Position numbers and translations under genes: made by a program | In this document: positions 42,057-62,669 of the stretch, one piece after another | Layout: the number at the start of each line of letters is the position of its first letter | Numbering within the stretch: position 1 is the stretch's first letter | The notes under the pieces: model-generated | Database searches by the model: none | Told to the model about the DNA's origin: nothing | What the model saw: only the letters and a program-made list of their open reading frames with translations | Assembly (NCBI GenBank): GCA_016699105.1 | Contig: CP064960.1 | Span: forward strand, 593,034-657,033 | Origin: a bacterium | Lineage (GTDB): Bacteria > Patescibacteriota > Saccharimonadia > UBA4664 | Length of the DNA stretch: 64,000 bases | Reading direction: 5' to 3'

Positions 42057-42104
42057 AGTGGGTAAGTAGCCAGCATATACTGAATCCAGTGGGTTGCAGT
42101 GGGT
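42057..42104 (+). promoter_or_regulatory. Putative MraZ operator: three direct repeats AGTGGGT (42057, 42088, 42098), the last two exactly 10 bp apart, about 30-70 bp upstream of mraZ
   Basis: Repeats seen in sequence. MraZ proteins are known to bind direct (T)GGGN-type repeats in the mraZ/dcw promoter region. A perfect DnaA-box-like TGTGGATAA also sits at about 42033-42041. Confidence 0.5.
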
Positions 42105-42131
42105 AGCGAACCTGACGGTAAATATCACAAT

Positions 42132-42490
42132 ATGGATTATTTTGAACGCAAACTCGACGACAAAAACCGCCTGACTATTCCGGCAGAATTGCGACACGAG
42201 TTTGAAGCGGGCAATGTGATAATTACTCGAGGCTTCGCCAACTACCTGCATCTGTACACTGAAAAACTTGGAATGAGGCAATGGAACCGGCGCTCAAAGG
42301 CAATATACTCGACGAGCGTACGGCCGATCTGAACGTCCAGTTTCGGACGGGTAAAACAGCTAGCCATCTCGACGCCAAACAAGGGCGGATTGTGGTGGAA
42401 CAGCACTTGCTCGACTATGCCGGCATTGACCGCGACATCGTGGCGGTGCGGGCAGGCAGCTACTGGCGCCTCATGGCCAAAACCCACTAA
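42132..42490 (+). CDS. mraZ: Transcriptional regulator MraZ, split by a single-base deletion in an A-run (42263-42267)
   Basis: First repeat MDYFERKLDDKNRLTIPAELRHEF...NVIITRG, second repeat DAKQGRIVVEQHLLDYAGIDRDIVAVRAGSYWRL. Adding one A joins LHLYTEK|TWNEAMEPALKG. Confidence 0.8.
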
Positions 42491-42847
42491 TTTCTTTGGT
42501 TTATTTATCAAAATAAAGAACCTTCAAAACCAAAACAAACATTTCAAGAGCAGCTACTTGGCAGTCAACAAATCGGACCCAAAGGCGGCCGATCCCAAAA
42601 CAGCCTGGTACCTTTCGTCTCGTAAAAACTCCACCTCACAACACACTCTTTTGAAAGGAATTATTTTACCTGCAAAATGCTTATGCATTACGGTAGGCGA
42701 GTAATTCCTTATCTCACATGCGTATGCCTCACTCGCACAGTTAGGCATACTGCGAACTCAAATCACTCACTGGTTTACCAGTGACGAAAACCAAAAAAAC
42801 CAAAAAACAAAACGTTGACTGCTAAGTAGTTGAGCTCGAAAATAAAA

Positions 42848-42874
42848 AATAACCCGCATAACATGCGGGTTATT
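42848..42874 (+). other. Perfect 12-bp hairpin AATAACCCGCAT-aac-ATGCGGGTTATT in the rsmH 5' region, at the end of a 400-nt A-rich mraZ-rsmH intergenic region
   Basis: Seen in sequence. No U-tract. It lies inside the N-terminal extension of the ORF-track rsmH ORF, which argues the real start is the downstream Met. Confidence 0.45.
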
Positions 42875-42901
42875 GAGTATGTAACGTATATAATGATTTC
42901 G

Positions 42902-43828
42902 ATGACGAATCTGCATACGCCCGTATTACTCAATCAAGTCTTAGAAATATTAGATCCACAAGTGGGTCAGAAATATTTGGATGCAACGGCTGGACTGGGT
43001 GGACACGCCCAGGCAATCCTCGAACGGACTCAATCGCCACAAGAGGCAGTGCTGGTTGATCAAGACGCCACGGCCATAGCGGTATTGGAGGAGAAATTTC
43101 CACAGGCGACAGTTGTACAGACGGATTTTGCTTCGGCGGCACAGTCGTTGCTCGATGAAGGTCGACAGTTTGATTTGATACTCATGGACTTGGGGGTATC
43201 GTCGCCGCAACTAGATCGGGCGGAGAGGGGATTTAGCTTCCGGTACGAGGGACCACTTGATATGCGCATGGACCAGACAGCAGAACTGTCGGCCGATCAA
43301 GTGGTTAATACTTATACACAGGTAGAACTCGAGCGGATACTGTATGAATTTGGCGAAGAGCCACGGGCTCGGGCGGTCGCGGCCGCAATTGTAGCAGCGC
43401 GACCCCTGCGGACAACTCAAGAGTTGGCTGCGGTTGTACGCCGAGCCGCGTTTCGACCCAAAGAAATTGATGCAGCCACCAAGACTTTTCAGGCGATTAG
43501 ACTTGCTGTAAATAATGAACTAGACACGCTTGCACAAACTGTGCCGCTTATGGTAGAGTTGCTAGTACCAGGCGGAAAGCTGGTTATCATAAGCTTTCAC
43601 TCCCTGGAGGATCGAATCGTTAAACTGTACTTTGACCGAGAAACGAAATCCTGCATCTGCCCACCGAAACAGCCGATCTGTACGTGTGAGCACCAACCAA
43701 CACTGGAAAAAATTACCAGGAAACCATTGGTAGCGGATGCATCTGAAATAGCTTTCAATCCACGAGCCCGTAGCGCAAAGCTGCGAGCCGTCGAAAAAAT
43801 AAACAAAAACAAAAGGAGGGACAGCTAA
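42902..43828 (+). CDS. rsmH: 16S rRNA (cytosine1402-N4)-methyltransferase RsmH/MraW
   Basis: HTPVLLNQVLEILDP...YLDATAGLGGHAQAIL SAM motif. A TATATAAT box sits 7 nt upstream of the ATG at 42902. Confidence 0.85.
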   Translation: MTNLHTPVLLNQVLEILDPQVGQKYLDATAGLGGHAQAILERTQSPQEAVLVDQDATAIAVLEEKFPQATVVQTDFASAAQSLLDEGRQFDLILMDLGVSSPQLDRAERGFSFRYEGPLDMRMDQTAELSADQVVNTYTQVELERILYEFGEEPRARAVAAAIVAARPLRTTQELAAVVRRAAFRPKEIDAATKTFQAIRLAVNNELDTLAQTVPLMVELLVPGGKLVIISFHSLEDRIVKLYFDRETKSCICPPKQPICTCEHQPTLEKITRKPLVADASEIAFNPRARSAKLRAVEKINKNKRRDS

Positions 43829-44027
43829 TGTCTGTCACCATTCGCCAGCTTGGAAAGAAACAAGCTCAAAAAGTGCTAGTACGCGTACGGGTTTCGTAAA
43901 CCTGTTGCGCTATTTGGTGTGTGGCCGTCAAGAACTGATTAATACAAAAAATTATTAATCGATTCATTCGGCGGCCACCACCGGCTCTATATTAAAATAA
44001 ATAAAAACAAAATAAAGGAGACGCGCT

Positions 44028-44348
44028 TTGTCATCTGCGGTTGTAACAGCGCGGCGAAACCAGAATTTGTACCGGCAACCGGCGACGGTGGTACTGGGTC
44101 CGACATCGGCTACTTTTGTCGTAGTAGCGATAGTTGGGGTGTTGGCTTTGCTTTACTTACATCAAATTACTAAGACAGGAGCCCTGGGATATAAAGTTAC
44201 CGATTTGGCAAGAACTCGTGACGCTGTGGCTGCTCAGAAACAAGACTTGAGTGTCGAAGCTGCCAGGTTGCAGTCAATCGCCGCAACCAAGTCGTCACCA
44301 GTGGCAGCTGGAATGGTGCCTCAAGCTCAGGTATCGTATGCCAAGTGA
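44028..44348 (+). CDS. ftsL: Cell division protein FtsL (bitopic, coiled-coil)
   Basis: 106 aa with a single TM (FVVVAIVGVLALLYL) followed by a coiled-coil. TTG start with AAGGAG RBS. Sits between rsmH and ftsI. Confidence 0.65.
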   Translation: MSSAVVTARRNQNLYRQPATVVLGPTSATFVVVAIVGVLALLYLHQITKTGALGYKVTDLARTRDAVAAQKQDLSVEAARLQSIAATKSSPVAAGMVPQAQVSYAK

Positions 44349-46091
44349 CACCCATTCGTGAAGGACTAATTTGGAGAGGGCGCTTACGGTACCTGCAATT
44401 TGGCACCGTGGTACTAGCGGGCGTACTCATTGGCCGGTTGGGTTATTTGCAAATTGTGCAGCATGATAAATATCAAGCACAAGCGGCTGAAGAGCATACC
44501 CGTAAGTACCAAATTCCTTCAACGAGGGGTGAAATCTATGCCTATGATGGCTCCACAGTCGTGCCGCTGGTTTTAAACCAGACCATGCATTTATTGTATG
44601 TTGATCCTCGTTACGTGGATGACCGCGATGGTGTGGCCGCAAAATTGGCTGAAGTTACCGGAGCTAAGGCCGCTGATTATCGCTCGCGTATTGATAAGGG
44701 TATCGAATACGCTATCTTGGAGCGTCGCATTAGCAATGATATTGCGACCAAGGTTCGAGAGCTGGGTATAAAGGCGTTGGATTGACGCCGACTGCTTACC
44801 GGACCTATCCCGAAAGCAGCTTGGCAGCTCAAGTGTTGGGATTTGTAAACGCTGATGGTATCGGTCAATACGGTATTGAAGGCTTTTAAACGAACAATTA
44901 GCTGGACAGCCGGGACAATTGGCGGCTAAGACTGATACGAGAGGCATACCAATAGCTACTGCTGATAACATAGTCAAACCGCCGCAAAACGGTATCAATT
45001 ATGCACTGACTATCGATCGCAATATTCAAGCCATGGCTGAGCAACGCTTAGCTGAACAGATAACTGCGGTCAAAGCTAAATCCGGAAGCATTATTATTAT
45101 GGATACCGATGGGGCCGTGCGGGCGATGGCTAATTTCCCGACATTTGATCCCAACGCATATTCGTCGGTTACTGATTACAGTGTTTTTATGAATCAAACG
45201 GTGAGCAGCCAATTTGAACCTGGTTCGGGCATGAAAGCCTTTGCTATGGCTATTGGTCTGGATCAGCAAAAGATTACGCCCGATACGACCTATGATGACA
45301 CGGGATCGGTTAAAGTGGCTGATAAAGTGATTAATAACGCCGAAGGCGACAAGCCTGGTGCTGGTAAGTCGATGACGGTCGTACTGCGAGACTCGCTCAA
45401 TACCGGAATGGTATTCGTGCTCAAGATGATTGGTGGCAATGCTGATGCAATTACATCGACTGGTAAGAAATTAGTCTACGAGTATTACACCAAGCATTTT
45501 GGATTTGGGGAGCGCACTGGTATTGAACAAGCAGCTGAGGCTGCTGGATCGCTGCCACCAGCCAATCGTGATGATGTGACCTATGCCAACATGGTATTTG
45601 GGCAAGGTTTGAGTGTCACCATGATTCAAATGACCACAGCTATGGCTGCCATTGCCAATGGGGGCACGTTATATCAACCCCGGTTGGTAGCGGGCGAGGT
45701 CAAAGCTGACGGATCGGTGCTGCCGACTTCATCCAAAATCTTACGGTCCTCGGTCATCAGCCAAAAAACGGCTCAAGATCTAGGTACAATGCTCCAAGTA
45801 GTAGTGCAACGCGGAAGTGGTTACCGGGCTGGGCAAATGAATCCTGGGTATAAGATTGCCGGTAAAACCGGTACGGCGCAAATTCCCCGGCCAGACGGCA
45901 AAGGCTACATTGACGGCGCCAATATTGGATCATTTGTCGGCTATGCGCCAGCTGATAACCCCCGATTTGTCGTCATGGTGCGGATTAACGAGCCGGGTGT
46001 GCCCGGATTTGCCGAGACCACTACCGTGCCCGTTTTTGGCGATGTCTGTAAGTGGTTGTTTAAGTATTACGCCATTGCGCCGACAAGCTAG
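44345..46091 (+). CDS. ftsI: Septal peptidoglycan transpeptidase (class B PBP, FtsI-like), split into three ORFs by two single-base deletions (G-run ~44773; T-run ~44884-44887)
   Basis: Continuous reading VRELGIK|GVGLTPTAYRTYPESSLAAQVLGF...GIEG|FLNEQLAGQPGQLAAKTDTRG... Transpeptidase boxes SxN (SLN) and KTGTA are present. Confidence 0.8.
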
Positions 46092-46122
46092 TGAATATTT
46101 TGTTAAAATACCAAGGTAACCT

Positions 46123-47184
46123 ATGAACTTTTCTGATTTTTGGCCGACCAATTTCATCCACGCTCAAGAAGTGACCTCGTTGTCGCGCCTGGGTATGATG
46201 GCGTTTGGCGCATTCGTGTTGTCGATGCTCCTGGTCCCGGTCTATACCAAGCTAGCGTTCAAATACAAATTGTGGAAACAGCCTCGATCAACAGCTATCA
46301 CGGGTGAGGCGGCTCCGGTGTATCAACGACTCCATGCCGCAAAGCACCAACGCAATATTCCAACCATGGGTGGCGCAGTGCTGATATTAGCCGTTGCGGT
46401 GATAACGTTGTTACTTAACCTATCGCGTAATCAAACCTATCTGCCGTTGGCTGTGTTTGTGGCCGCAGGTCTTGTAGGGTTGTTTGACGACTATCTCAAT
46501 ATTCGGTCGGAAGGGCTGGGTATTGCCGGCATGCGCGGCAAAATTAAATTTAGCTTGATATTTGGTATCGCCTTATTGGGCGCATTGTATTTTTACTACA
46601 AATTGGGCTACAACATGATTCATGTGCCGGCAGTTGGTGACTTTACTATCGGCTGGCTCTATATTCCGCTCTTTATTGCCGTGGTGGTATCGACAGCCAA
46701 TGCCGTCAATATAACCGATGGATTGGACGGTCTGTCGGGTGGATTGTTGTCTACGGCATTCTCGATATTTGCGGTCATCGCTTATTTTCAGGGAAGCTAT
46801 GGAATCGCGGGATTTTGTATGGCAATCGTAGGTGTACTGCTGACCTATACGTGGTTTAGTATTTATCCAATTCGTTTTTTCATGGGTGATAGTGGGGCGT
46901 TTGCCTTTGGTACGACGCTTGGTGTGATAGCAATGCTGACTAATAGTGTGTTTGTGTTACCGATTGTAGCGGCTGTATTTGTAGCCGAAGCCGGGTCGAG
47001 TGTGATCCAGATACTTTCGAAACGATTCTGGGGACGAAAAGTCTTTATATCGGCGCCGCTTCACCATCATTTGGAGGCTATCGGCTGGCCAGAAACCAAA
47101 GTGACAATGCGACTATGGGTGATTGGTCAGGTCGTAGGTGCACTTGGCTTAATTCTAGCGTTATTGGGCAATAGAGTACCATGA
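46123..47184 (+). CDS. mraY: Phospho-N-acetylmuramoyl-pentapeptide transferase MraY
   Basis: NAVNITDGLDGLSGG and the polytopic architecture. Confidence 0.9.
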   Translation: MNFSDFWPTNFIHAQEVTSLSRLGMMAFGAFVLSMLLVPVYTKLAFKYKLWKQPRSTAITGEAAPVYQRLHAAKHQRNIPTMGGAVLILAVAVITLLLNLSRNQTYLPLAVFVAAGLVGLFDDYLNIRSEGLGIAGMRGKIKFSLIFGIALLGALYFYYKLGYNMIHVPAVGDFTIGWLYIPLFIAVVVSTANAVNITDGLDGLSGGLLSTAFSIFAVIAYFQGSYGIAGFCMAIVGVLLTYTWFSIYPIRFFMGDSGAFAFGTTLGVIAMLTNSVFVLPIVAAVFVAEAGSSVIQILSKRFWGRKVFISAPLHHHLEAIGWPETKVTMRLWVIGQVVGALGLILALLGNRVP

Positions 47185-48412
47185 ACCAGTCTGAACAATT
47201 GCCAGCCCGGACGCATAAGCCTGATTATATTTTGGCGATTGCTGTCATAGTGCTATTGGTAGTTGGTTTGGTTGTCATGTACTCTATTAGCCCGATATTG
47301 AGCTATAAGCAGTTGGGCGACGTCGAAAGTAACCGCTTTTTCGGCAAGCAAGCCTTGGTGGCGTTAGGCGGTATCAGCGCATTGGTGCTAATGTCATATA
47401 TCCGCTATGATCGCTGGCGGCGCTGGGGTCAATGGGTTCTGTTGGCGGCTGGGGTTATGACTGTGGCTCTGCTAGTGCCCGGGTTGTCGCAACATACGAA
47501 TGGTGCCACACGCTGGCTCAATTTGGGACCGTTATCGATACAGCCAGCTGAGGTGTTGAAACTGGGAATTGTCTTATATTTGGCGTTGTGGCTGGAACGG
47601 CGTAAAGATGAACTCAAATCACTCGCCGACGGCATTATGCCTTTTTTGATTATGACTGGTGTAATTGGTTTTGCGGTGGTGGTGATGCAACGCGATATGG
47701 GTACTATGCTAGTACTTGGAGCAGTGATGTTGGGCATGTATTACGTCGCGGGTATGCGTCGGCGCCATTTACTCGCAGTTGTGGCGACTGCTGGTGTAGC
47801 GGGTTGGTTGGCTATTACTATGTTTCCCCATCGGATGGAACGAGTAGTGACATTTTTGAATCCTCGATGTGATGACCCTACATATGCCCTCAACGATTCA
47901 CATCATATTTGCCAAGCACTGCTTGGGGTGGGAAGTGGTGGATTCTTTGGCGTTGGGCTTGGGCACAGTATTCAGGTATATGGTTACCTACCCGAAGCGG
48001 CCAACGACTCGATATTTTCAGTGGTAGCGGAAGAGTTTGGATTAGTTGGGGCATCGCTCATTGTGGTGTTATTTATGGTGGTAGCATGGCGAAGTTTTGC
48101 GATTGCCCGGTGGGCGCCAGATATTTTGGAAGGCTAGTGTCGGTTGGTATTGGCTTGTGGCTAGTTACTCAAGCAGTTGTTAATATTGGCGCAATGCTAG
48201 CTTTGGTGCCATTGACCGGCATTCCATTACCTTTTATTTCATTTGGTGGGACCAACTTATTGGTATCATTAGTAGCAGTAGGCATTTTGCTGAATATTTC
48301 TAAATACACCGTTAGAGAGGGTAGTCATGAAAGTGGCTCTGAGCGGCGGCGGGTCGGCCGGGCACATAATGCCAGCGCTGGCCGTGTGCGACGCCTTACA
48401 ATCGCTCCATAA
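47181..48412 (+). CDS. ftsW: SEDS-family peptidoglycan glycosyltransferase FtsW, split by a single-base deletion in a T-run (48124-48127)
   Basis: C-terminal GIPLPFISFGGTNLL lies in the second frame. Adding one T joins ...APDIFGRLVSVGIGLWL. The end is uncertain; the current frame overlaps murG by ~85 nt. Confidence 0.75.
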
Positions 48413-49493
48413 AGGAGTAGAACTGCTCTATATCGGTCAAGCCGATAGTATGGAAGAGCGGATTGTGCGGGCTAAAGGCCTAGCATTTGCGCCCGTGCGC
48501 GCTGGAAAGTTTCGGCGCCGGCATTTCGATTCGGGTGTGGCTAAACTACTCAATCACCAGACACTTGGCCCAAATAGTCGTGACGCTTTCCGAACTGTCG
48601 CTGGTGTACATGACGCCTGGAATGTCATACGACGTTTTAAACCAGATGTAACTTTTATCAAAGGCGGTTTTGTGGGAGTACCAGTGGGACTGGCGGCTCG
48701 TATGTTGGGAGTTCCATATATTATTCATGAATCCGATGTATCACCAGGGTTGGCAAATCGGTTGCTTGGTCGTTGGGCGGCGGCTATCGCCACTGGCTTC
48801 CCAGCTAAATATTATAGTCAATGGCAGGACAAACACGTGGAATTTGTGGGAAACCCGGTGCGACCGGAAATTATGGCGGCTCATCGACTCGCTGGTCTAG
48901 CCAAATTCAAACTTGATGAGAGTCAGCCAGTACTATTGATCACTGGTGGCTCGCAAGGTTCTCGGGAAATCAACGAGGCGGTTTTAGCCGGGCTCGATGA
49001 ATTACTTGAATTGGCACAGATCATTCACGTGACCGGCGAATCGGAATTTGAACGGGTGCAATTTAATCTGAACCGCCAAGCAAGTCAGCCCGATCCGGCA
49101 CGTTATAAAGTATCAGCCTTCTTAAATGCTGAGATGCCGCTGGCACTGGCAGCAGCAGATGTGGTAGTCTGTCGGGCTGGCATGAATACCGTGGCCGAAC
49201 TTGCAGTACTGGAGAAACCGACCATACTAATACCGAACACAGATATGGCAGCGCATCAAATGGCCAACGCGCGGGTGTTGGCGCGGGCAGGGGCAGCCAG
49301 AGTATTGTCAGGCGATTCGGTGACAGCCGCCAAGCTGGTAGGGGAGGTAAGACTCATTCTAAGTGACGAAGCTGAGCAACAGCGTTTAGCCAAGGCCATT
49401 GGTAGCTTCGCCAGTCGACAGGCAGCCGAGGATTTAGCTCAACTTATCCTTAAAATTGGTGCAGCTTCGACCAAAGAGGGGAGTGGGGTATGA
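48327..49493 (+). CDS. murG: UDP-GlcNAc:lipid I N-acetylglucosaminyltransferase MurG
   Basis: N-terminus MKVALSGGGSAGHIMPALAV and C-terminal GT-B domain. GAGAGGG RBS. Confidence 0.9.
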   Translation: MKVALSGGGSAGHIMPALAVCDALQSLHKGVELLYIGQADSMEERIVRAKGLAFAPVRAGKFRRRHFDSGVAKLLNHQTLGPNSRDAFRTVAGVHDAWNVIRRFKPDVTFIKGGFVGVPVGLAARMLGVPYIIHESDVSPGLANRLLGRWAAAIATGFPAKYYSQWQDKHVEFVGNPVRPEIMAAHRLAGLAKFKLDESQPVLLITGGSQGSREINEAVLAGLDELLELAQIIHVTGESEFERVQFNLNRQASQPDPARYKVSAFLNAEMPLALAAADVVVCRAGMNTVAELAVLEKPTILIPNTDMAAHQMANARVLARAGAARVLSGDSVTAAKLVGEVRLILSDEAEQQRLAKAIGSFASRQAAEDLAQLILKIGAASTKEGSGV

Positions 49494-50307
49494 ACGGTCA
49501 ACGCCGGGTCGTGCGTACTGCTCGCGGTGTCTATGGCCGGTCGGTGCCGCTTGCGTCTCCATCCAAACGTCGGGTGCGGTTCGAGTTTGGCTGGACAGTC
49601 AGCCAACGCTTGCGCCGGTTAGCAATTTTACTGGTCGTGGCTGGAGTCTTAGCTGGTGCTGGTATCTGGCTGGTATCGGTACGATCAGTCCAGGTGCGAG
49701 CCGCTGATCAGCAGGATACAATTACCAAGGACATTTGGCAGCATTTAAATGACGGTTGGTGGCCAGCCAATCTCGTGACATTGGATGAAGCGGCATTGGA
49801 ATCAGCTATTCGCGAAGTCCATCCTGTGGTGAAGGATCTCCAATTTAAGCGCCAATGGCCCAGTACCTTGGTGGTAACGGCTGAGCTAAAATCACCGCAA
49901 CTTGTCTGGTATTCGGAAGTCAACTAGCAGTACTCGATGCTGATGGCACAGCCATTGGCGGAATGAGCGCGGCTGATGCCAAATTGCCTGTCGTCTATGA
50001 TGGCAGCAATCTGCCAGTTGAGCCAGGACAGCAAGTAGTGCGGGCCCAGTTTGTGACCTATATTCATGAACTGACGGCAGGGTTAGCTAGTAGGGGAGTT
50101 GGTATTAACAAATTGCGGGTAGGCCAGACGACACTGGATTTGACGGTTGAAACCAATAAGACGTACCAACTCGTTTTCGATACGTCACGTCTAGCAGGGG
50201 AGGGGCTTAGGGATTATGATGCCGTAATTAAATCAGCGACCAACTTGAAGAAACCTATCAATGAATACATTGATTTACGCATTAGTGGTAAGGCGTACTA
50301 TAAGTAG
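49490..50307 (+). CDS. ftsQ: Cell division protein FtsQ/DivIB (POTRA domain), split by a single-base deletion (~49922)
   Basis: N-terminal TM (LAILLVVAGVLAGAGIWLV), POTRA-like region, then C-terminal beta domain in the second ORF. Adding one A joins WYSEV|KLAVLDADGTAIGG. Confidence 0.65.
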
Positions 50308-50689
50308 TAGGCGACCAAAAAGAGTACTCCTCTCTCCCCTTGTCCAGTTCGGTTTTTGTACTTATGAAAATGGAGGTTTAGGCACATAAGTGCGCATTAA
50401 TTCGCTCATCACTGACTAAAAGTTAAGCGAAACTAGATAAAAGACGCCAAAAATGACTAAAAAAGTTCGTAAATAATCAACAGATATTTAAGTGATTAAA
50501 CGGTACTTTTGAGCGCTTTGTAAGCGAGTTGTCGCAAAATATACATTGTGCGACGTTATGCTATCTCACGTTTTCGGGTACGAGTATTGGTCTTTTACCA
50601 TTATTAGACCTGAACTAACCCTCATTTAAGCTTATGTTGGCGTTCTGTTGTGGTGATTCTACCTACTTTGGTGTGGTGGGTATTTGACC

Positions 50690-53400
50690 CTATCGTCGGA
50701 AACTAACTGCCTCACCTGCGGCTAGCTGGGACTTGTCGGTGGTGTTTCCGGAATGGGGGAGTCTGGCTGGTCGGGCGTCGGGTCGTTGACGAGGACGCGC
50801 GGCGTTGGCGTTGGTGTATGAGTTATCTCCCCTGCTCTGGTTTGATCTCGGGGCGTAACTTGGTCGGTTTGACGATGAGGGGGCATTGCTCGTACTGGGA
50901 TTGCGGAGTGACCCGATAAATTCTTTGTTCGTATTTTGTTCCCGAGCTTCGGCTGCTAATTCTTCGGGATCAGCAGTTCGTTGTCTGATATCCTGTTCGA
51001 CTTCAAGCCGTGGTGTAGCTATGAGCTGGCGGTTACCATCAATTATTTGAGCTGTTAAGTCAGCTTCAGGATCGGGCATGCGGAGCGTTGTTGCTGAGAA
51101 TGCTACTGCTTTTTCGCCATTGATAATCATATTAATGAAGATGCTTTGATTATGTAGCCGAGTTAAGTCAGCTGCTTCAAAAACGGGCTCGAAATACTTA
51201 CCCAAAATCGCTGAATCACCAGGCCCAACACGGAAGCTAATCATGGTACCAACGTTTCCGAAGACCGCGTCACGGACGACTTCTGGCATTTGAGCTACAT
51301 ATTGATTGGCTACCGTTAAGTTGAGTCCATACTTGCGAGCTTCAGATAAAATGACGGCAAATGAATCGGTGGCAAAGTTTTGGAATTCGTCGACGTAGAG
51401 ATAGAAGGGTCGCCGGTCTTCCATGGGGACATCGGCCCGGCTCATGGCTGCAAGCTGTATCTTAGTAACCATGAGGGCGCCCAAAATGGCGGCGTTATCC
51501 TCCCTACTTGCCCACGCGAGAGGTTTACAAGCAAGATCTTGCCTTCATCCATGATGTCTGATATTGAAGGCACTTTTTGCTGGCCGATGATGTTACGTAC
51601 CAAGGGGTTCGCCACAAAGGCACCGACTTTGTTTAAGATAGGTGCGACTGCTTCTGAGGCAAATTTTTCATTCCAGGACGCAAATTCGATGGTCCAAAAG
51701 TTCTTGACGATAGGGTCTTTGATCTCTCGGATGACGCGTTTGCGGAAGGTTTTTCGGTAAGCATTCGCGGGATATCGAGCATGGTGGCACCGTCGTAATC
51801 AATGAGCGCCAACAAGGTGTACCGGAGGATGTATTCAAGCCGCGGTCCCCAAGAATCAAACATTCGTTTGAGTACGCCGACTAATTCGGACGATACGTGA
51901 TCGCGCATAGCGGGATCGGTAACTTCCATTGGGTTAAAGGCTATAGGAAAGTCGCGGTCAGCGGGATTGAGATAAACCACATCTTTGACGCGATGAGCAG
52001 GAATATAACGCATGATGTCTGTAACAAAATCACCGTGTGGATCGACAATGGCAAAGCCAACATCGTGATAGATATCAGACAGTGTCAACAATTGAAGTAG
52101 GAATGATTTTCCTGCGCCCGTTTGACCAACAATATACATATGCCGTCCGCGGTCGCGGCGTTTGATGCCAAATTTGAGTCGTTGACCGCGGAAATTGGTC
52201 ATCCCAAATAGACTTATTTCTAGGGCTTCGGCAGATCCTTCCACAGGAACACTCGACGGCGGCTCACTAGTCTTAGCGGTTGTCCAGACGATATTGGGGT
52301 AGCCACAGTTTTGTGAGGTAGATGGTATAACGATGCTAATTCTTCGATATTGAGGATATAGCCGGGATCATAAAACAATCGCGACCGAAAGTCTTCCAGA
52401 AAATCGAGCGAATCATAGGTCTTGGCTACGGCAAAACCATTGAGGTTTGTGGTATTAAACTGTTTGAAGCCACCAACGATGGCTTGGAGTCGCTGCCGGG
52501 CAACAATTTCGTCAGGACCTAAGATGGCGATCCGAATCTTGACTTGATAACCAAGCTTGGTTATTTTTCTTCAATAGCCTTGATGACGCCTTGTTGACCT
52601 GGGCTGAGTTCAACCTTGGCTTCGGCGGTTTTAGTATCGGAGGTAGGAGGTTCATATAAGGCTCGGATGAAGTTGGATAGCACATAAATGGGTACTTGTA
52701 ACAAGCCATCGGTGAGTTTGGACAGCCAATCTTTTTTGGGTCCACCTTTGATAGTTTCAATGTAGTCTTTGCCCTGATCTTGCCAAGAGTCGTCGATGGG
52801 ACGGGCGAGAATCTGAATCCAAACCTCTTCACCGCTCGCTTCCAACTTGGCTAGTACGCCCGTAATGCCGGCTAGCGGGTCAACTTCAAACGACGCAAAC
52901 GTTTTAACGGGTAGTACCGTGTCTTTAGTTAATCCAAGCTCGGCGCCGTAAATAGCCCGTTCCCCTACTTCGGTTAGCGAGTAGTCATCAGCGTTTTCCT
53001 TGATTTGGACTGTCGGGTATTGGGCATAAATCTGACTTTCTAGGAAATCTTTAAGGTGGCGTGGTACCCACACGTAAAACTGGATTGAACTATAATGAGC
53101 AACAATTTCGAAACTGACGTGTTCTTGGGCTTGACTCCCCTTCAGATCACTATCTGGTCGCAAAATACCGTGTAGTGATGCAAACATCTGCTCAGCTGAT
53201 AATTCTTTCTTCTCATTGTCTTTAGGGACATCAATACGCAAGAGGATACTATCGTAAAGGTCTGGCTTGGCGGCAGATGTGGTACTTGACGAAACGCGAT
53301 TTCTATTTTGAAGTATTAGATAACCAAAAACGGCCACGACTATAACCCAGCCGTAGAACTTGAATAATAATAATCCAATCACCTGAAAAATCAGGGTCAA
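50690..53400 (-). CDS. Type IV secretion coupling protein-like ATPase (VirD4/TraG/TraD family, with TraG-D_C-type C-terminal region) carrying an N-terminal membrane domain; fragmented by about four single-base frameshifts (~51502-51504, ~51750-51754, ~52270-52300, ~52564-52568)
   Basis: Walker A MYIVGQTGAGKS and VDPHGDF. Walker B / TraG-D_C block PFYLYVDEFQNF...SEARKYGLNLTVANQ. Homopolymer corrections give a continuous reading (MLTEK|TFRKRVIREIKDPIVKNF...; ...NLSRGQVG|EDNAAILGALMV...). The upstream 279-aa TM-containing ORF (52561..53400) joins in frame if an A5 run is A6, and the downstream frame has no start codon of its own. Family assignment is moderate; the fused architecture is inference. 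Confidence 0.6.
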
Positions 53401-53490
53401 TGGTCCTAATATAAGTGAGGTTATATTTTCGATAGCGCTTACCCTCTCCCCTATCCTACACTGTTTTGCGGGTTATTTGGGTGTTTTACG

Positions 53491-54507
53491 TCAGCTTTTG
53501 AGCTTGTAGGTAGCTTTGGCAGTACGTTCAAACTGCTCTTTTTCTTGGAGATTGAGGATAATGGTCGTTGTTTTGACCTGACGCTTGAGTAGGACTCGGC
53601 GGACAATTTCATCTTTGTGCAGTGGTTGTTCTTCGCGCAAAACACTGGCAATGATCTCGGCAACCGTACCTGGTGTATAGCCCCATTCTGCTAAAGCGTA
53701 GATACCCCGGCCAATGAGAATAAAGCGTTCATCTTTGATGAGCTCGTTGTGGACAGCTTGAACTGTGACATCACGCTTGGATACGCCCAATTGACGGACG
53801 TGTTTTGCTATCTCAGAAAAGTGTAATGGTCGTCCATGACGACCCAATACCAAGTAGGTCTTATCGCGAATACTTTTCGGGTTTACCTCAGGCCAACTTA
53901 TAAGTCCCCATTTGGTATCGAAATTGGCAAGTTTTTTACTAACCGATAAAAGCATCTCAAGCGTTTGATTCTCTAACTGCGATGGCATTTTATTGTTGAC
54001 CTTAGACAATGTCATAGGCTTGCCATAATCCTTTATGACCTTAACTGCTTCGGCAATAAGGGCAATGACTTGAGGTCGTGCATAAATGGGCTTTAGGGTG
54101 ATAGCTTGGCGTAGATCATCATCTTCTGGTATGAGTTCAACACCACTAGATAGTATGGCTAAGAATACAATGTACGGGATATCTAGATCATTGGCACCAA
54201 GCTGTATGGCGACATCATCGGCAAGCGCTATACCACCAGCATTTGCTACTATTTCTTGGAGTATATCACCAGCCTGGGCTACTTCGGATGATCCGACATT
54301 ACTCATTTTGACAATAGCGGCTTTTTCAATTTGGCGGACACGTTCACGGGTGATGCCAAAATCTGAACCAATCTTCTCGAGAGTTTGGCGACGATTCATG
54401 CCGAAACCAAACCGGCGAGAAATTATCTGTCGGTCACGGTCACGGCGCAATTCCTGAAGAATGCGTTCGACGGCGGTCTTGTAGTCGTAGGTTACTGTTG
54501 TGATCAT
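53491..54507 (-). CDS. DNA-binding protein with N-terminal sigma-70 region-4-like HTH and C-terminal winged-helix-like domain
   Basis: QTLEKIGSDFGITRERVRQIEKAAIVKM matches sigma70 region 4.2. C-terminal LHFSEIAKHVRQLGVSKRDVTVQAVHNELI resembles a wHTH. Confidence 0.5.
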   Translation of the reverse strand: MITTVTYDYKTAVERILQELRRDRDRQIISRRFGFGMNRRQTLEKIGSDFGITRERVRQIEKAAIVKMSNVGSSEVAQAGDILQEIVANAGGIALADDVAIQLGANDLDIPYIVFLAILSSGVELIPEDDDLRQAITLKPIYARPQVIALIAEAVKVIKDYGKPMTLSKVNNKMPSQLENQTLEMLLSVSKKLANFDTKWGLISWPEVNPKSIRDKTYLVLGRHGRPLHFSEIAKHVRQLGVSKRDVTVQAVHNELIKDERFILIGRGIYALAEWGYTPGTVAEIIASVLREEQPLHKDEIVRRVLLKRQVKTTTIILNLQEKEQFERTAKATYKLKS

Positions 54508-54562
54508 AATTACTCAGAATTATAAAATATCAGACGACGCGTGTCAACGATTTTACGGAAGT

Positions 54563-55438
54563 CTATAAATCTTCAGCAAAATCACGAATAATCTGCCTCA
54601 ATTCACTATTTGCTGCAGCGACTTCCAGATTGGCACGAAGCCAGTTAGCAGTATTGCCTGAGTCGAGGTAGGTGCCTTTCGTTTGGTGAACTACAATCGG
54701 TAGTTTCGAAGCTGCCATCTGAATGACATCGGTAATGTAGAGCTCTCCCGATTTGGGGTCAGGCTTAACTTTTTTAAGGAAAGGCAAAACTTGTGGGCTG
54801 ATAATGTATTTAGAAATGTTTATCAGATTTGAAGGCGCCTCACCTGGCTCGGGTTTTTCGACTATTTGCTCGAGGTATTCAAAAGAGCCTTGACGCTTGG
54901 TAGCTAATACACCGTAGCGATGCAACTGGTCGGCTGGACACTGGAGAGCGGTTACTGCCGCGTTGGCGCCACTTTGAACAAAGGTGTCAATGAGCTCGGC
55001 TGCTTCAAAGCGACCATCTGTTCGCCAGATAAAATCGTCGCCTCCGGCCACAAAAACAGCTTCATTTTTGGGCAAGTGTGGTTTGGCAACGATGAGTGGT
55101 ACAGCTGTACCATAACCAGCATTTTCGGGCTGCTCCACAAAACTAAACACTGCCTTTTGATGAATTTCTTGCAACTCACGCAAGGCCGACAATTTGCCGA
55201 GTCGGTCAAGTTGTCGCTCGAGTGCGGGATTGCCGGTGTAGTAGTCTTGCATACCATGAGAGTCGGGTCGGATGACAAAAATAATGTGAGTGATGCCACT
55301 GGCGACTAAGTCTGATACCAGGTAATCGATGACGGGCCGGTTTAAGATCGGTAATAATTCTTTTTGGATGGCAGACGTTGCTGGTAGCATGCGCGTACCA
55401 CCACCGGAGGCAAAAATGACTGCTGTTGTGACGTTCAT
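54563..55438 (-). CDS. galU: UTP--glucose-1-phosphate uridylyltransferase (GalU-like sugar nucleotidyltransferase)
   Basis: AVIFASGGGTRMLPATSAIQKELLPIL nucleotidyltransferase signature. Confidence 0.8.
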   Translation of the reverse strand: MNVTTAVIFASGGGTRMLPATSAIQKELLPILNRPVIDYLVSDLVASGITHIIFVIRPDSHGMQDYYTGNPALERQLDRLGKLSALRELQEIHQKAVFSFVEQPENAGYGTAVPLIVAKPHLPKNEAVFVAGGDDFIWRTDGRFEAAELIDTFVQSGANAAVTALQCPADQLHRYGVLATKRQGSFEYLEQIVEKPEPGEAPSNLINISKYIISPQVLPFLKKVKPDPKSGELYITDVIQMAASKLPIVVHQTKGTYLDSGNTANWLRANLEVAAANSELRQIIRDFAEDL

Positions 55439-55452
55439 AATTGATAAACTCC

Positions 55453-56451
55453 TTAACTAAAATAAGCTTGCATAATCAAGCGGGCAGTTTTGTCGGGATG
55501 ATGGCGGATGAGGGTTCGCGGAATAATCTGGTCGGCGGCAGTCAGTTTGGGGATGCTATCGGCGATGATATCACCACCAATGGGTGTAAAGTGTTGTTTG
55601 GCGAGGGTAGTTTGGTCAAAACCAACAGCATATTCCCCTGCTCGAGCATACTTATCAAGTAATTTTTGGCTCGGTTGATGTTGGTTGTAAATGACAAAGT
55701 CGAGGACCGGTTTACCGATAAAACGTTCAATTTCTGTGGCGTAGTCTTGTACCTGAAAATCGTCGGTTTGGCCAGGTTTAGTGACGAGGTTTGAAACGTA
55801 GACAATGCGAGCATTACTATTTGACAACACATCTCCTAACCCAGGTACTACTAGTGTTGGAGCCAAAGAAGCATATAAATTGCCAGGGGCTATGACGACT
55901 AAATCTGCTGTCTCAATAGCGGTTTTGGCTTCAGGATTCAACCGCGAGGTGGGCTCGAGGCTCAGTTGCGGAGGTTGACTACGGTCTATCTTGGCACTTT
56001 CGACTGTATGTTGGCCAATCACGGTAGAACCATCGGGCTGGGTCAAAACGAGCTTGCTATTAGTCAGTGTGACCGGAACGACCCGGCCGGTGATATTGAG
56101 TACCTTACTCGCAGTCCGAACTGCCTGAGCGAAATTGCCAGTTGTTTTTTCGAGAGCAGTCAAAAAGAGGTTGCCAAACGAATGACCGCCAAACGTGCCT
56201 TCGGCGAAGCGGTAGTTGAATAGGTCACGCATGATTTGATCAGACTCAGACAATGCCACTAAACATTGTCGGATATCGCCAGGCGGTAATACGCCTAGCT
56301 CATCCCTGAGACTTCCAGTTGAGCCGCCATCGTCAGACATATTGACGATGGCCGTGATGTCTCGGACATAGTTTTTAAGGCCGGTGAGTACCGTGAAGCT
56401 CCCGGTACCTCCGCCGATAACAACAACTTTGGGACCTTGGTTATGAGTCAT
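55453..56451 (-). CDS. YvcK/CofD-like gluconeogenesis factor family protein (UPF0052)
   Basis: VVIGGGTGSFTVL and GSLRDELGVLPPGDIRQCLVAL. Confidence 0.75.
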   Translation of the reverse strand: MTHNQGPKVVVIGGGTGSFTVLTGLKNYVRDITAIVNMSDDGGSTGSLRDELGVLPPGDIRQCLVALSESDQIMRDLFNYRFAEGTFGGHSFGNLFLTALEKTTGNFAQAVRTASKVLNITGRVVPVTLTNSKLVLTQPDGSTVIGQHTVESAKIDRSQPPQLSLEPTSRLNPEAKTAIETADLVVIAPGNLYASLAPTLVVPGLGDVLSNSNARIVYVSNLVTKPGQTDDFQVQDYATEIERFIGKPVLDFVIYNQHQPSQKLLDKYARAGEYAVGFDQTTLAKQHFTPIGGDIIADSIPKLTAADQIIPRTLIRHHPDKTARLIMQAYFS

Positions 56452-57843: not shown

Positions 57844-57882
57844 TGTATCACGATGGGCGTGCGGTGAAAGGTTTTTTTGGTA

Positions 57883-58590
57883 TTAGGTAGCTCGGACATG
57901 CTCAGCAAAGAATTGCCGAGCATGGGGCAAGGTCAAAGTGGCAAGTGTTTCGGCTCCAACAATATGAGACACTATCTGATATGGTTGGTGGCTCATGAGG
58001 CGCCAAAGTTTGATGCTTGCAGTTGATATGTCGGCTGCACCGGGTAATGCGCAATATTGGCAGACTAAGCCTCCGCGATGAGGGTCGAAATGATACTGAC
58101 GGTCAGCTGTATCATGCCCACACAACAAACAGCCACTCAGTTCGGGTTGGTAACCTAAACTCGATGCTACTTGTAACCGATACCATAATTCGACGAGTGC
58201 GGGAGGGCTGCCGGCATCGAGCTCACTAATAAGTGTTTTGAGTGCTAAGTAAGCGGGTGCCTGAGGCTGACCAGTTTCAAGTAAGCGTTCGAGTAGAACC
58301 GCCAGCGTTAACGCTGGATCGAGCAGTTGCCAATTTTTTGCTAGTTGGTGCGGATAATATAGCAAGCGGGCACCAGTAATGACATCTATGTTACTACGGC
58401 CAGTAGTGAGGCTGAGCATCACGGTACCAAGCGGCTCTAGATGACCAGCCAGTCGGCTTTTTATCTTGCGGACGCCGCGCGCGACAGCGCTGATTTTACC
58501 GTAATCAGGAGTGATAAATCGAATAATTCGATCCGACTCACCAAAATTAGTACGCCCAATAACCAAACCGGTTGTTTGGTAGCTCGGCAT
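57883..58590 (-). CDS. recO: DNA repair protein RecO
   Basis: N-terminal OB fold and Zn finger CLLCGHD...CQYC. Confidence 0.8.
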   Translation of the reverse strand: MPSYQTTGLVIGRTNFGESDRIIRFITPDYGKISAVARGVRKIKSRLAGHLEPLGTVMLSLTTGRSNIDVITGARLLYYPHQLAKNWQLLDPALTLAVLLERLLETGQPQAPAYLALKTLISELDAGSPPALVELWYRLQVASSLGYQPELSGCLLCGHDTADRQYHFDPHRGGLVCQYCALPGAADISTASIKLWRLMSHQPYQIVSHIVGAETLATLTLPHARQFFAEHVRAT

Positions 58591-58608
58591 GCTAATGTTG
58601 ACTCCTAA

Positions 58609-59022: not shown

Positions 59023-59065
59023 GAATCCTCCTAAAGCGTCCCTGTGCACTTCTAGTGTAGCGGAC

Positions 59066-61356: not shown

Positions 61357-61412
61357 TAGCCACCTTCCTCCTCTTACCCTAGCATCTGGCGGCTGCTTAA
61401 CTCAAGATTCGA

Positions 61413-62102: not shown

Positions 62103-62148
62103 ATAATAACTGTTTAAAACAGACCTTATTACTGCTTATGCTACTAGA

Positions 62149-62652: not shown

Positions 62653-62669
62653 ATCGTTAATAAATCTAC

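Follow-up and report, generated by a model that had tools for sequence, protein, structure and literature searches.

The locus analyzed here raises the question of why a large ATPase resembling type IV coupling proteins (T4CPs) is encoded beside the dcw cluster of a member of the Saccharimonadia, and what it does there. We analyzed this locus within a 64-kb stretch of DNA (64,000 nt; hereafter the window) and found two gene units that face each other tail-to-tail. The plus-strand unit is the dcw block (42099..50307), consisting of mraZ (42099-42490), rsmH (42830-43828), ftsL (44028-44348), ftsI/PBP (44345-46091), mraY (46123-47184), ftsW (47181-48412), murG (48327-49493), and ftsQ (49490-50307; POTRA_1), as called from ORFs and named by Pfam via their unbroken orthologs in L001 and L107. 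The mraZ, ftsI/PBP, ftsW, and ftsQ genes are split in the window, the last by a frameshift at about 49930, and these splits coincide with homopolymer deletions relative to the short-read contig L001. As originally predicted, the cluster ends at ftsQ: mur ligases, ftsA, and ftsZ were not found within 42099..50307, the whole window contains neither an FtsZ signature nor a tblastn match to FtsZ, and its sole actin-like DIGGGT motif belongs to MreB (~26.7 kb). The expectation that ftsA and ftsZ lie elsewhere agrees with the gene table of Southlakia epibionticum ML1, where they (SEML1_0174/0175) are ~100 genes away from ftsQ (SEML1_0275) (PMC10633639). The AT-rich gap that had been noted after ftsQ measures 382 nt (50308..50689; GC 0.39 compared to 0.49 for the window) and contains no Rfam family, tRNA, consensus promoter, terminator, or ORF of at least 50 aa. 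Beyond it lies the minus-strand unit, in which an HTH gene (53491..54507, 338 aa) is followed by the ATPase gene (50690..53400). The HTH protein carries the predicted Sigma70_r4 domain (aa 23-68) and a HARE-HTH domain (aa 214-275) of the RNA polymerase delta-like type according to Pfam. A sigma-70 consensus match on the minus strand (54519..54547; TTGACA-17-TATAAT, 12/12), which is a pattern match only, ends 12 nt ahead of the HTH start codon, so that the leader of the mRNA would be very short or absent. The 90-nt spacer between the two genes contains no promoter match, and they are probably co-transcribed.

In the window, the ATPase gene is broken into five minus-strand ORF pieces (53400 to 50690) that join to a protein of ~904 aa, close to the ~900 aa first estimated, with an ambiguous start codon at roughly 53382-53427. 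When comparing the window to L001 (98.5% identical), we observed 18 indels over 20 kb, 17 of which are bases that the window lacks, for the most part in runs of one base (typically 4-6 long). Six deletions fall within the ATPase (52568, 52299, 51754, 51578, 51557, and 51504), all of them in single-base or dinucleotide repeat runs, consistent with the claim that nothing but such indels breaks the gene. The ATPase, FtsQ, FtsW, PBP, and HisK are intact in L001 and L107-L111, and the ATPase ORF (899-908 aa) is unbroken in five independent, near-identical short-read assemblies. The gene is truly intact despite its splits in the window and, given its unbroken ORF in each of these assemblies, its product is very probably functional, as had been assumed. 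The protein has a Walker A motif (GQTGAGKS) and a Walker B motif (LYVDEF) in a core that spans ~aa 400-760 and includes a helical insert (~aa 490-600). The predicted N-terminal membrane domain is confirmed only in part: we found one hydrophobic transmembrane helix (aa 1-24 of protein P0001), followed up to ~aa 400 by a ~370-residue region annotated as PF26449/DUF8128 without any further hydrophobic segment. The tail is disordered, rich in Ser, Asn, Pro, and Arg, and ends in a conserved peptide of the GExVSLR type.

The original prediction had asked whether this ATPase might belong with FtsK or HerA rather than with T4CPs. Pfam models for TrwB_AAD_bind (37.4 bits, cut-off 20.5), DUF87 (33 bits), and the expected TraG-D_C (21.6-24.3 bits, cut-off 22) matched the protein, with FtsK_SpoIIIE under its cut-off (17 bits) and the TraG P-loop likewise (11.8 bits, E 0.09, cut-off 25.8). 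A search of PDB profiles returned TrwB (E=4e-6) and DotL (E=0.008), with HerA-type chains at E>0.1 and FtsK absent from the matches. Foldseek was led by TrwK/VirB4, DotL, TrwB, and Cag-beta, with HerA behind and FtsK absent, in a ranking that is soft owing to the low quality of the AF2 model (mean pLDDT 59.5). These results support the idea that the ATPase is closest to T4CPs, not to FtsK or HerA. Judged by sequence, this likeness is weak: the NCBIfam T4CP models all stayed far under their cut-offs (35.6 bits against 366), and the PADLOC mad8 ATPase model scored 60 bits, above any T4CP model, alongside matches to HerA and DndH. Like TrwB (R388), VirD4, DotL, and Cag-beta, which include its best profile and fold matches, the ATPase combines a Walker A/B RecA-like core and helical insert with an N-terminal membrane anchor; unlike them, it has one transmembrane helix plus DUF8128 instead of two helices, lacks a linked relaxase or T4SS genes, and scores far under the family cut-offs. 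In Foldseek, VirB4 ranks as high as the T4CPs on this low-confidence model. VirB4/TrwK proteins also pair a large N-terminal domain with a C-terminal ATPase at a similar total size, and they gave the top E-values with full-length alignments. However, TM-scores on the low-confidence model were only 0.2-0.27 and no VirB4-type (CagE/TrbE) N-terminal model matched in the Pfam scan; the resemblance is a putative one. Homologues of the ATPase number more than 6000; the best 120 share 59-99% identity, all 120 contain PF26449 and PF01935, and 119 contain PF10412. The Walker motifs are invariant among homologues, and the DUF8128 region matched 1702 cluster representatives (50% identity clusters), with one named example from Woesebacteria.

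We then compared gene order across 80 ATPase-anchored Saccharimonadia species loci, and found the HTH gene upstream of the ATPase in every locus that reaches that far and the dcw block downstream in almost all loci with enough downstream sequence. The same order is visible in the Southlakia gene table (PMC10633639), where the ATPase ortholog SEML1_0293 (~920 aa; PF10412, PF12696, and PF01935 from ~aa 400) shares with the window's ATPase its architecture, its HTH neighbour (SEML1_0294), and the side of ftsQ on which it lies, and is remote from virB4; its distance from ftsQ is ~15 kb (small ORFs, a type II CRISPR-Cas9, and a GNAT gene) compared to 382 nt in the window. Contrary to the original claim, the arrangement is therefore not unusual: an HTH-ATPase pair converging on ftsQ...mraZ is, by gene order, the usual layout of the class rather than an oddity. 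This comparison marks the layout as ancestral for the class and not as a local rearrangement or the boundary of a mobile element. Neither the linkage to dcw nor the dif-like site described below is mentioned in the available parts of PMC10633639 and PMC12102498. In some motif-anchored loci, the HTH gene ends less than 1.5 kb from the dif-like site, which leaves no room for the ATPase; these loci show the same divergence as ATPase-bearing ones, and the HTH gene holds its position in them. In the Southlakia Tn-seq data, the HTH ortholog SEML1_0294 is essential (PMC10633639). Because of this essentiality and its retained position without the ATPase, the HTH protein, described at first as an HTH regulator, is not simply the regulator of the ATPase. 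SEML1_0293 itself was scored non-essential (NE) at all time points (PMC10633639), and its reads fell ~4-fold from T0 to T2 (5817 to 2940 to 1372) while those of its neighbours stayed flat, indicating that the gene is not neutral. Most simply, the adjacency of ATPase and ftsQ reflects inherited synteny around the site without functional coupling to division.

We propose, with a probability of roughly 60%, that this locus is a conserved dcw/HTH-ATPase junction that contains an exapted, accessory coupling-protein homologue and, in the gap, a dif-like attachment site for IMEXs. The two-gene unit would comprise an essential sigma-region-4/HARE-HTH protein followed by an ATPase that is tethered to the membrane, has a family-specific DUF8128 N-terminus, and belongs to the coupling-protein (TrwB/VirD4/VirB4) branch within the FtsK-HerA superfamily. 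The ATPase would form a hexameric translocase that is powered by NTP and anchored in the membrane through its one helix, and the conserved peptide at the end of its tail may dock a partner. Its dispensability in culture in Southlakia and its absence from the site in some lineages suggest an accessory role, outside the core of the essential T4SS and outside the divisome. A host Xer-type tyrosine recombinase may act on the 28-bp site, which would serve as the integration site for integrase-less, inovirus-like elements (IMEX-type). Such integration would account for the invariable position of extra DNA in relatives, between the ATPase and the site.

A serious, if doubtful, alternative is that the ATPase is a genuine, remotely encoded coupling protein that feeds protein or DNA substrates to the VirB4/VirB6 channel of a dnaA-proximal T4SS. 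In sequence and in fold it matches T4CPs best, and the Southlakia T4SS cluster (SEML1_0006-0019; PMC10633639) contains no recognizable coupling or relaxase proteins as described by Wang et al. The remoteness of the gene fits as well: Quinonero-Coronel et al. (2025) report thousands of T4CP homologues far from virB4, with only 148 of 5713 patescibacterial homologues near it, and suggest exaptation (PMC12102498). The ~4-fold fall of SEML1_0293 mutant reads in co-culture and the long tail with its conserved terminal peptide point in the same direction. TraD and DotL have tails of a similar kind, which bind adaptors. However, the Southlakia T4SS is described as essential machinery (Wang et al.), yet SEML1_0293 is not required at any time point; the ATPase is missing from the conserved site in some lineages, carries one helix plus DUF8128 instead of a two-helix anchor, and approaches no NCBIfam T4CP cut-off. 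The large ORFs of the window that were tested include no T4SS gene, and we found no evidence for the original view of the ATPase as a working T4SS component.

Within the gap, we identified a 28-bp near-palindrome on the minus strand (50529..50556; ACGTCGCACAA-TGTATA-TTTTGCGACAA), composed of an 11-bp arm, a 6-bp centre, and an 11-bp arm, that has a single copy in the window. With six or fewer mismatches, 68 species loci carry it in this orientation, and a relaxed search added four more; among loci with enough downstream DNA, only L068 lacks it. Its 24-bp core is nearly invariant in the 68 species while the flanking DNA is unalignable, genes converge on it in nearly all loci, and in 40 of 58 motif-anchored loci it adjoins the 3' end of the dcw cluster, its most stable neighbour. 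We know of no such linkage for other dif sites. This element looks like a putative chromosomal Xer (dif-type) recombination site: E. coli dif, XerH/difH, XerS/difSL, and archaeal XerA/dif share its 28-bp length and 11+6+11 build, and dif sites are directional and single-copy, as is this one in the data examined. E. coli dif has the same TGTATA centre, and the near-identical arms of the element would fit a single recombinase, as in XerH/difH and XerS/difSL. The window showed no Xer gene; Southlakia is reported to have one Xer-like recombinase, and mutants in it have a growth defect. Unlike dif sites, the element is not at an inversion of strand skew. At synonymous sites, minus-strand genes to its right have skews of +0.34 to +0.70 (plus-strand sense), and those at 10-16 and 22-26 kb have skews in an overlapping range and the same direction (+0.12 to +0.72); in 66 of 72 loci, the two sides of the site differ in coding-sense GC3 skew (~-0.3 towards the ATPase, ~0 towards dcw). 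Because the asymmetry does not flip there, the replication terminus probably lies elsewhere. In Southlakia it lies ~31% round the chromosome from dnaA (PMC10633639), off the antipode of dnaA, and archaeal dif, at 122-144 degrees, is likewise off the antipode.

The absence of a skew inversion would also suit an unlikely explanation, namely that the element closes the dcw operon as a terminator hairpin working in both directions, or is an operator for a transcription factor there. Its palindromic form between converging genes, its steady dcw neighbour, and the symmetric arm changes in L030 and L031 (GTCGTA...TACGAC) are in line with this. On the other hand, the 'loop' is no more variable than the stem, the RNA fold is no better than that of shuffled sequences (z=-0.75), no T-tract terminator was matched, and the direct arm-plus-centre repeats around the integrase-less elements described next would be left unexplained.

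These elements, of ~5-5.5 kb, adjoin the dif-like site in relatives (oral contigs and the environmental locus L083) and have genes for a Zot-like ATPase and for a Rep of the rolling-circle type (PF23343, phrog_3419); most of their genes belong to no known family and no integrase family was detected in them. They are bounded by the full site on one side and a copy with one arm plus the centre on the other, the pattern described for the gonococcal genetic island (GGI) and VGJphi, which suggests that they are integrase-less, inovirus-like elements with an IMEX signature, integration being read from their sequence. CTXphi, VGJphi, TLCphi (Vibrio), and the GGI similarly lack an integrase and leave hybrid arm-plus-centre copies, and Rep with a Zot-like morphogenesis ATPase beside the site is common to IMEXs and these elements, whereas the hosts here are ultrasmall epibiotic Patescibacteria. 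Inserted DNA between the ATPase and the site or ftsQ reaches 15 kb in relatives, including Southlakia. T4CP-type genes are typically found in mobile elements, and the GGI is an IMEX carrying T4SS genes. It is quite unlikely, though conceivable, that the ATPase, possibly with the HTH gene, is itself the domesticated relic of an ancient integrative element comparable to the GGI. Its patchy presence at the site and its position on exactly that side of it at which elements integrate today would fit, but the 59-99% identity among the best homologues and the fixed synteny look vertical and under purifying selection, the HTH partner is essential in Southlakia, and no degenerate second site was found on the far side of the ATPase in the loci examined.

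It is very unlikely that the ATPase is a division or segregation DNA translocase, either an FtsK-like pump or an Xer activator at the dif-like site, possibly guided by the HTH protein. The protein is membrane-anchored and of the FtsK-HerA superfamily, it is encoded class-wide beside ftsQ and a few hundred bp from the site with the HTH gene likewise always adjacent, and off-terminus, FtsK-independent dif has an archaeal precedent. However, Southlakia has an essential, canonical four-domain FtsK with a gamma domain (SEML1_0096; PMC10633639), the FtsK_SpoIIIE score is under its cut-off, the ATPase is dispensable and absent in some lineages that retain the site and the HTH gene, and insertions of as much as 15 kb of foreign DNA between gene and site are tolerated. 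Least credible of all are a defence-system motor of the HerA/mad8 type, as the PADLOC mad8, HerA, and DndH matches might suggest, given that no partner defence genes are adjacent in L001 and L107-L111 and that a single fixed locus with high conservation is atypical of defence islands, and a decaying pseudogene, as the five ORF fragments might suggest, given that the frameshifts are sequencing-type deletions also seen in essential genes of the window and that the ORF is intact elsewhere in the species.

The locus at which the division operon ends is conserved and already partly documented, and its most informative new element is a dif-like site in the gap behind ftsQ, together with the integrase-less, phage-like passengers found at it. 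The dcw cluster occupies 42099-50307 on the plus strand and comprises mraZ, rsmH, ftsL, a penicillin-binding protein gene (PBP/ftsI), mraY, ftsW, murG and ftsQ (49490-50307), of which mraZ, PBP/ftsI, ftsW and ftsQ are split. Behind it lie an intergenic gap of 382 nt (50308-50689; GC 0.39 vs 0.49 for the window) and, on the minus strand, the ATPase gene (53400 to 50690), which is read as five ORF fragments that join to ~904 aa, and upstream of this a 338-aa ORF for a helix-turn-helix (HTH) protein (53491-54507). When we compared the gap by blastn with all fetched loci, a stretch of ~25-30 nt was 80-100% identical (mostly at least 88%) across dozens of species, and the intergenic DNA around it was otherwise unalignable between species. 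This stretch corresponds to a 28-bp near-palindrome at 50529-50556, the minus-strand reading of which is ACGTCGCACAA-TGTATA-TTTTGCGACAA. A dif site spans ~28 bp and consists of a central region of 6-8 bp flanked by two 11-bp arms, which are partly dyad-symmetric. The near-palindrome has this architecture, with 11-bp arms that differ at one conserved position, a 6-bp centre, and a dyad axis in the middle of the centre. TGTATA is also the centre of E. coli dif. Allowing up to six mismatches, we found exactly one copy in the window and one in each of 68 species loci, with constant orientation to the ATPase; a relaxed search added four further loci, and the others mostly stop short of the site. 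The 64-kb window and each 20-kb locus thus hold a single full copy, and the 24-bp core is nearly invariant and fixed in orientation across ~70 Saccharimonadia species loci, the chief variants having a second centre, TATATC, with a G/A change in one arm.

Rfam gave no matches over the whole window at gathering thresholds, ARAGORN found no tRNA or tmRNA, and scans of the gap found no promoter, no terminator and only ORFs shorter than 45 aa. A structured RNA or terminator was dropped as a reading of the site because the RNA fold of the motif region was no better than that of shuffled sequence. Judged by its architecture, we regard the site as a candidate Xer recombination site. Tblastn with an approximate E. 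coli XerD query gave no Xer recombinase, either in the window or in the flanks of the loci. For Southlakia epibionticum ML1 (hereafter Southlakia), the published gene table lists a single Xer-like tyrosine recombinase (SEML1_0117), mutants of which are growth-defective (Wang et al., 2023, PMC10633639), and a single recombinase fits the nearly identical arms of the site. A literature search for dif or Xer in Patescibacteria or Saccharibacteria gave nothing relevant; the gap contains a candidate Xer site in a phylum without, in the literature searched, a description of chromosome dimer resolution.

We scanned IMG/VR for the 24-bp core, and of the 23 contigs returned many have the site flanked by ftsQ or murG on one side. 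Where inserts could be delimited, an element of ~5-5.5 kb lies on the side of the site away from ftsQ/murG. Specifically, eight loci of relatives carry a second copy of the site ~5-5.5 kb off and in the same orientation, in which one arm and the centre are kept (GTCGCACAATATATC) and the other arm is unrelated (full/partial site positions: L097, 2211/7734; L099, 2195/7608; L102, 2062/7494; L104, 8489/2621; L105, 8657/3549; L106, 7667/2420; L091, 1327/6836; L083, 19208/14257). Two of these elements were annotated for Rep, Zot-like and integrase genes, namely those at 2211-7757 in L097 and at 14257-19231 in L083, the latter a metagenomic scaffold of ~900 kb. Both encode a Zot-like ATPase and a rolling-circle Rep of the G2P type known from filamentous phages, in addition to several small ORFs and one large ORF matching no family, and no integrase family was detected in either. 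Integrative mobile elements exploiting Xer (IMEX) are recognized as integrase-less elements between a dif site and a hybrid site with one arm and the centre, which is what we observe, and the same footprint has been described for the Xer-exploiting VGJphi and gonococcal genetic island. By sequence, this is an IMEX-like footprint in Saccharibacteria, and it suggests that small filamentous-phage-like elements integrate at the site without a detectable integrase. In relatives whose ATPase and ftsQ genes are separated by extra DNA, the intact site lies on the ftsQ side in every case. The site offers a defined, conserved integration point for genetics in the one tractable model, Southlakia, and a simple means of spotting prophage-like elements when Saccharibacteria genomes are searched. 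Separately, the IMG/VR contig L085 (40.6 kb), which has no dcw genes, carries the 24-bp core at 3338-3361, ~460 nt from a tyrosine recombinase gene (3823-4755), and its neighbours there encode a GH6 protein, a HerA-like ATPase, an S49 peptidase and a PD-(D/E)XK nuclease; this may represent the attP of a phage that brings its own integrase, or else a lineage in which xer lies beside dif.

Classical dif sits at the replication terminus, and the genes here do converge on the site. The strand skew does not invert at it, with four-fold GC3 skew having the same sign on both sides in the window, which leaves a testable puzzle: a dif-like site at the end of the division operon that is not a strand-skew switch. 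Expressed in plus-strand sense, this skew is ~+0.1 for plus-strand genes and +0.12 to +0.82 (mostly +0.2 to +0.8) for minus-strand genes. Since all minus-strand genes measured (10123-15933, 22617-26127 and 50690-63991) are positive, whether left or right of the site, the plus strand behaves as the leading strand over the 64 kb, past the site. Across 54 species, the coding-sense skew was -0.31 for the ATPase and HTH genes and +0.05 for the dcw genes, and with generic ORFs the ATPase side was below the dcw side in 66 out of 72 loci, i.e. the two sides are not mirrored. The idea that the site marks the terminus failed on bulk skew, on four-fold-site skew in the window and on four-fold-site skew across the 54 species and 72 loci. 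In Southlakia, the site lies ~264 kb from dnaA (~31%; genome >813 kb), the genes just past it are of mixed orientation in two parts of the gene table, and the minus strand carries every ribosomal operon listed at 421-484 kb (Wang et al., 2023, PMC10633639). Based on the uninverted skew, the position in Southlakia and the gene orientation beyond it, the site seems to lie well before the terminus. This does not disqualify it as a dif site, because archaeal XerA/dif is likewise off-antipode, at 122-144 degrees from oriC, and works without FtsK.

The original prediction had called a coupling protein beside the dcw cluster unusual, and in this respect it has to be revised, as the junction is the normal layout of the class. 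With the ATPase alignment we retrieved 80 Saccharimonadia loci, each species being represented by one genome, and determined their gene order by tblastn with the proteins of L001, a near-identical short-read contig. The HTH gene is directly upstream of the ATPase gene throughout this set wherever upstream sequence exists, and ftsQ-murG-ftsW-mraY-PBP-ftsL-rsmH-mraZ converges on the ATPase wherever the contig reaches; the order that was to be looked for in relatives thus holds, with one locus, L068, as the single clear exception. In the Southlakia gene table, the dcw cluster ends at ftsQ (SEML1_0275), followed by small ORFs, a type II CRISPR-Cas9, a GNAT gene and, on the opposite strand, the orthologs of the ATPase (SEML1_0293) and of the HTH protein (SEML1_0294), and FtsA and FtsZ (SEML1_0174/0175) are apart from the dcw genes (Wang et al., 2023, PMC10633639). 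The window, where tblastn with an approximate E. coli FtsZ query found nothing, and the one closed relative checked thus share a dcw cluster ending at ftsQ, with ftsA and ftsZ elsewhere.

In addition, metagenome contigs were scanned with the motif as anchor, an approach that does not favour loci with the ATPase and gave at least 120 loci. Among the matches listed, dcw genes flank the site in 40 out of 58 loci with enough sequence, and the ATPase flanks it in only 17 out of 86. For the 40 listed loci that extend 4.2 kb or more on the ATPase side, we found the ATPase in 8, the HTH gene only in 7 and neither in 25. The HTH gene ends at most 1.5 kb from the site in six of the seven HTH-only loci among these matches, leaving no room for the ATPase, and loci in which it ends 0.6-1.5 kb from the site and is followed by ftsQ, again with no ATPase room, are L136, L141, L153, L178, L189, L198, L200, L211, L215 and L228. 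Loci without the ATPase are as diverged from the window as those bearing it (MraY 53-57% identity), and in the five of the 25 loci with neither gene whose left-flank ORFs were read, translations judged by eye resemble housekeeping proteins (peptidyl-tRNA hydrolase, SmpB and glutamate racemase). Part of the group has either lost the ATPase from the site or never had it inserted there. What stays beside the site most constantly is the end of the dcw operon, followed by the HTH gene, with the ATPase being optional.

To place the ATPase itself, we compared it with the families of the FtsK-HerA superfamily. The original description of the sequence was correct, and the gene content and the Pfam domains of the ATPase and the HTH protein were confirmed. 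Walker A (GQTGAGKS) and Walker B (LYVDEF; YVDEFQNF in the alignment) are both invariant in a 26-sequence alignment, as is much of both halves of the protein. The joined ATPase combines this P-loop core with a type IV coupling protein (T4CP) profile above its curated threshold: PF10412 (TrwB_AAD_bind) scored 37.4 bits over aa 416-732 (cut-off 20.5), PF12696 (TraG-D_C) was borderline (21.6-24.3 bits vs 22), and PF01935 (DUF87/HerA central domain) reached 33 bits (cut-off 23.2). A profile search of PDB sequences ranked TrwB (E=4e-6) and DotL (E=0.008) first, with HerA-like chains lower (E>0.1) and FtsK absent, so that the best homology is to T4CPs; a best homology to FtsK/SpoIIIE or HerA was what the original prediction had named as refuting it. 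The ATPase falls outside the NCBIfam T4CP families (best TIGR03743 SXT_TraD, 35.6 bits vs 366) and the CD1115 VirD4-like model (28.8 bits vs 250). None of the features of FtsK was found, as PF01580 (FtsK_SpoIIIE) stayed at 16.9 bits, under its cut-off of 24, the gamma and alpha domain models gave no match, and neither a four-TM N-terminus nor a KOPS-reading gamma domain is present. As for HerA, the DUF87 match of 33 bits comes with no HerA_C domain, 13.7 bits vs 970 for NF040819 and no NurA-like neighbour. The PADLOC mad8 ATPase model scored 60 bits, and this defence-system identity was set aside, the locus being without any hallmark of a defence island. A database search returned >6000 relatives, the best 120 of which are 59-99% identical and 727-1088 aa long and carry PF26449 (DUF8128) and PF01935 in 120/120 and PF10412 in 119/120; the named ones among these 120 are Saccharimonadia, plus one labelled Dormibacteraeota.

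Family-averaged hydropathy gave one hydrophobic segment only (aa 1-24 of the homologue P0001) and none elsewhere in the protein, and not the anchor of two TM helices with a short periplasmic loop that is typical of T4CPs. The N-terminal helix is followed by ~370 residues annotated as DUF8128. An AlphaFold2 model built on the 26 close homologues was poor (mean pLDDT 59.5), and within it seven helices between Walker A and B (aa 491-600) reached pLDDT 80-92; this helical insert was paired by Foldseek, from the same poor overall model, with TrwB, DotL and Cag-beta. Foldseek placed TrwK/VirB4, DotL, TrwB and Cag-beta first, HerA below them and FtsK nowhere, and the full-length alignments of the predicted model to VirB4 (TM 0.2-0.27) may be taken only as a lead. 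The tail of ~130 residues (~50690-51100, minus strand) is disordered or of low complexity, rich in Ser, Asn, Pro and Arg, and ends with a conserved GExVSLR-type peptide, possibly a docking motif by analogy with T4CP tails. Together, these results place the ATPase in the coupling-protein/VirB4 branch of the FtsK-HerA superfamily, as a divergent member with an atypical anchor and a large N-terminal region. Searched alone, the DUF8128 region has 1702 cluster representatives at 50% identity, with one named member from Woesebacteria, and the literature on DUF8128 gave nothing relevant. Distant relatives of ~420-480 aa (P0196, P0233, P0248-P0250 and P0262-P0269) have DUF8128 without the ATPase, so that in other lineages the domain seems to occur as a protein of its own as well.

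Going by family membership, the ATPase is most likely a translocase of the coupling-protein type, hexameric and tethered to the membrane. The original prediction of a type IV secretion system (T4SS) coupling protein stands as far as kinship goes, the T4CPs being nearest, and is weakened by the single TM helix, by the large ORFs tested in the 64-kb window, among which there was no T4SS gene, and by the dispensability of the ortholog. The strict Walker A pattern G..G.GK[ST] occurs in the 64 kb in the ATPase only, and its neighbours are housekeeping genes. Housekeeping genes of the window as a whole include those for SecA (35656-37902) and a class I lysyl-tRNA synthetase (31230-32807; PF01921); SerRS, ProRS, a LytR-CpsA-Psr protein and HtrA were also seen. 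That the ATPase serves a distant T4SS in a non-essential way is unlikely, though it survives best among the alternatives. The Southlakia T4SS (SEML1_0006-0019) is called essential machinery and is described as a cluster without recognizable coupling and relaxase proteins; SEML1_0293 was scored non-essential at all three Tn-seq time points, with normalised reads falling ~4-fold (5817 to 2940 to 1372) and neighbouring genes flat, and SEML1_0294, annotated 'RpoS', was essential (Wang et al., 2023, PMC10633639). In a patescibacterial survey, only 148 of 5713 VirD4-type homologues in 2918 genomes lie near virB4, and exaptation is raised as a possibility for T4CP homologues, citing the Southlakia gene (Quinonero-Coronel et al., PMC12102498). 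Given these published findings, an orphan T4CP homologue in Saccharibacteria is already on record, and with a layout normal for the class the ftsQ/ATPase junction as first noted changes little. The sharper question is the role of a widely conserved yet dispensable coupling-protein homologue.

A division- or Xer-related role of the ATPase is improbable: its optional presence at the site agrees with the Tn-seq non-essentiality and argues against a required cis-relationship with ftsQ or the site. As an FtsK analogue it is weakened by the canonical four-domain, essential FtsK (SEML1_0096) that the Southlakia table lists separately from the ATPase ortholog (Wang et al., 2023, PMC10633639). Finally, the dif-like site might form one functional module with the HTH protein and the DUF8128/T4CP-like ATPase, to which we give a probability of roughly 0.07. 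The HTH protein would recognize the 28-bp site or nearby DNA, where the motor, tethered to the membrane, would next pump or present DNA; Saccharimonadia would thereby have FtsK-independent, off-terminus control of Xer recombination, or DNA processing or export starting there; if true, a coupling-protein homologue would have been recruited to chromosome maintenance.

The ATPase gene was originally held to be broken only by indels and functional, and this is borne out. L001 is 98.5% identical to the window across 20 kb, i.e. essentially the same organism, and its ORFs are all intact (ATPase 899 aa, FtsQ 272, FtsW 410, PBP 582, HisK 763), as are the genes in four further assemblies. A global alignment of 42000-62000 with L001 showed 18 indels in 20 kb, 17 of which are bases absent from the window, mostly within runs of one base, typically 4-6 long, or within a dinucleotide repeat; six fall inside the ATPase, and the genes broken by deletions are mraZ, PBP, ftsW, ftsQ, the ATPase, the tail of a glycyl/class-II aminoacyl-tRNA synthetase and a histidine kinase. 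The frameshifts are assembly errors, and the window looks like an unpolished long-read assembly. Because the ORF is intact in these other assemblies and the breaks are missing bases, mostly in runs, the ATPase is very probably functional in nature. In Pfam, the HTH protein matches sigma-70 region 4 N-terminally and HARE-HTH in its middle part. The 90-nt spacer between the HTH and ATPase genes has no promoter match, and a perfect TTGACA-17-TATAAT match lies on the minus strand (54519-54547) with only 12 nt between its end and the start codon of the HTH gene downstream, which suggests a near-leaderless HTH transcript.
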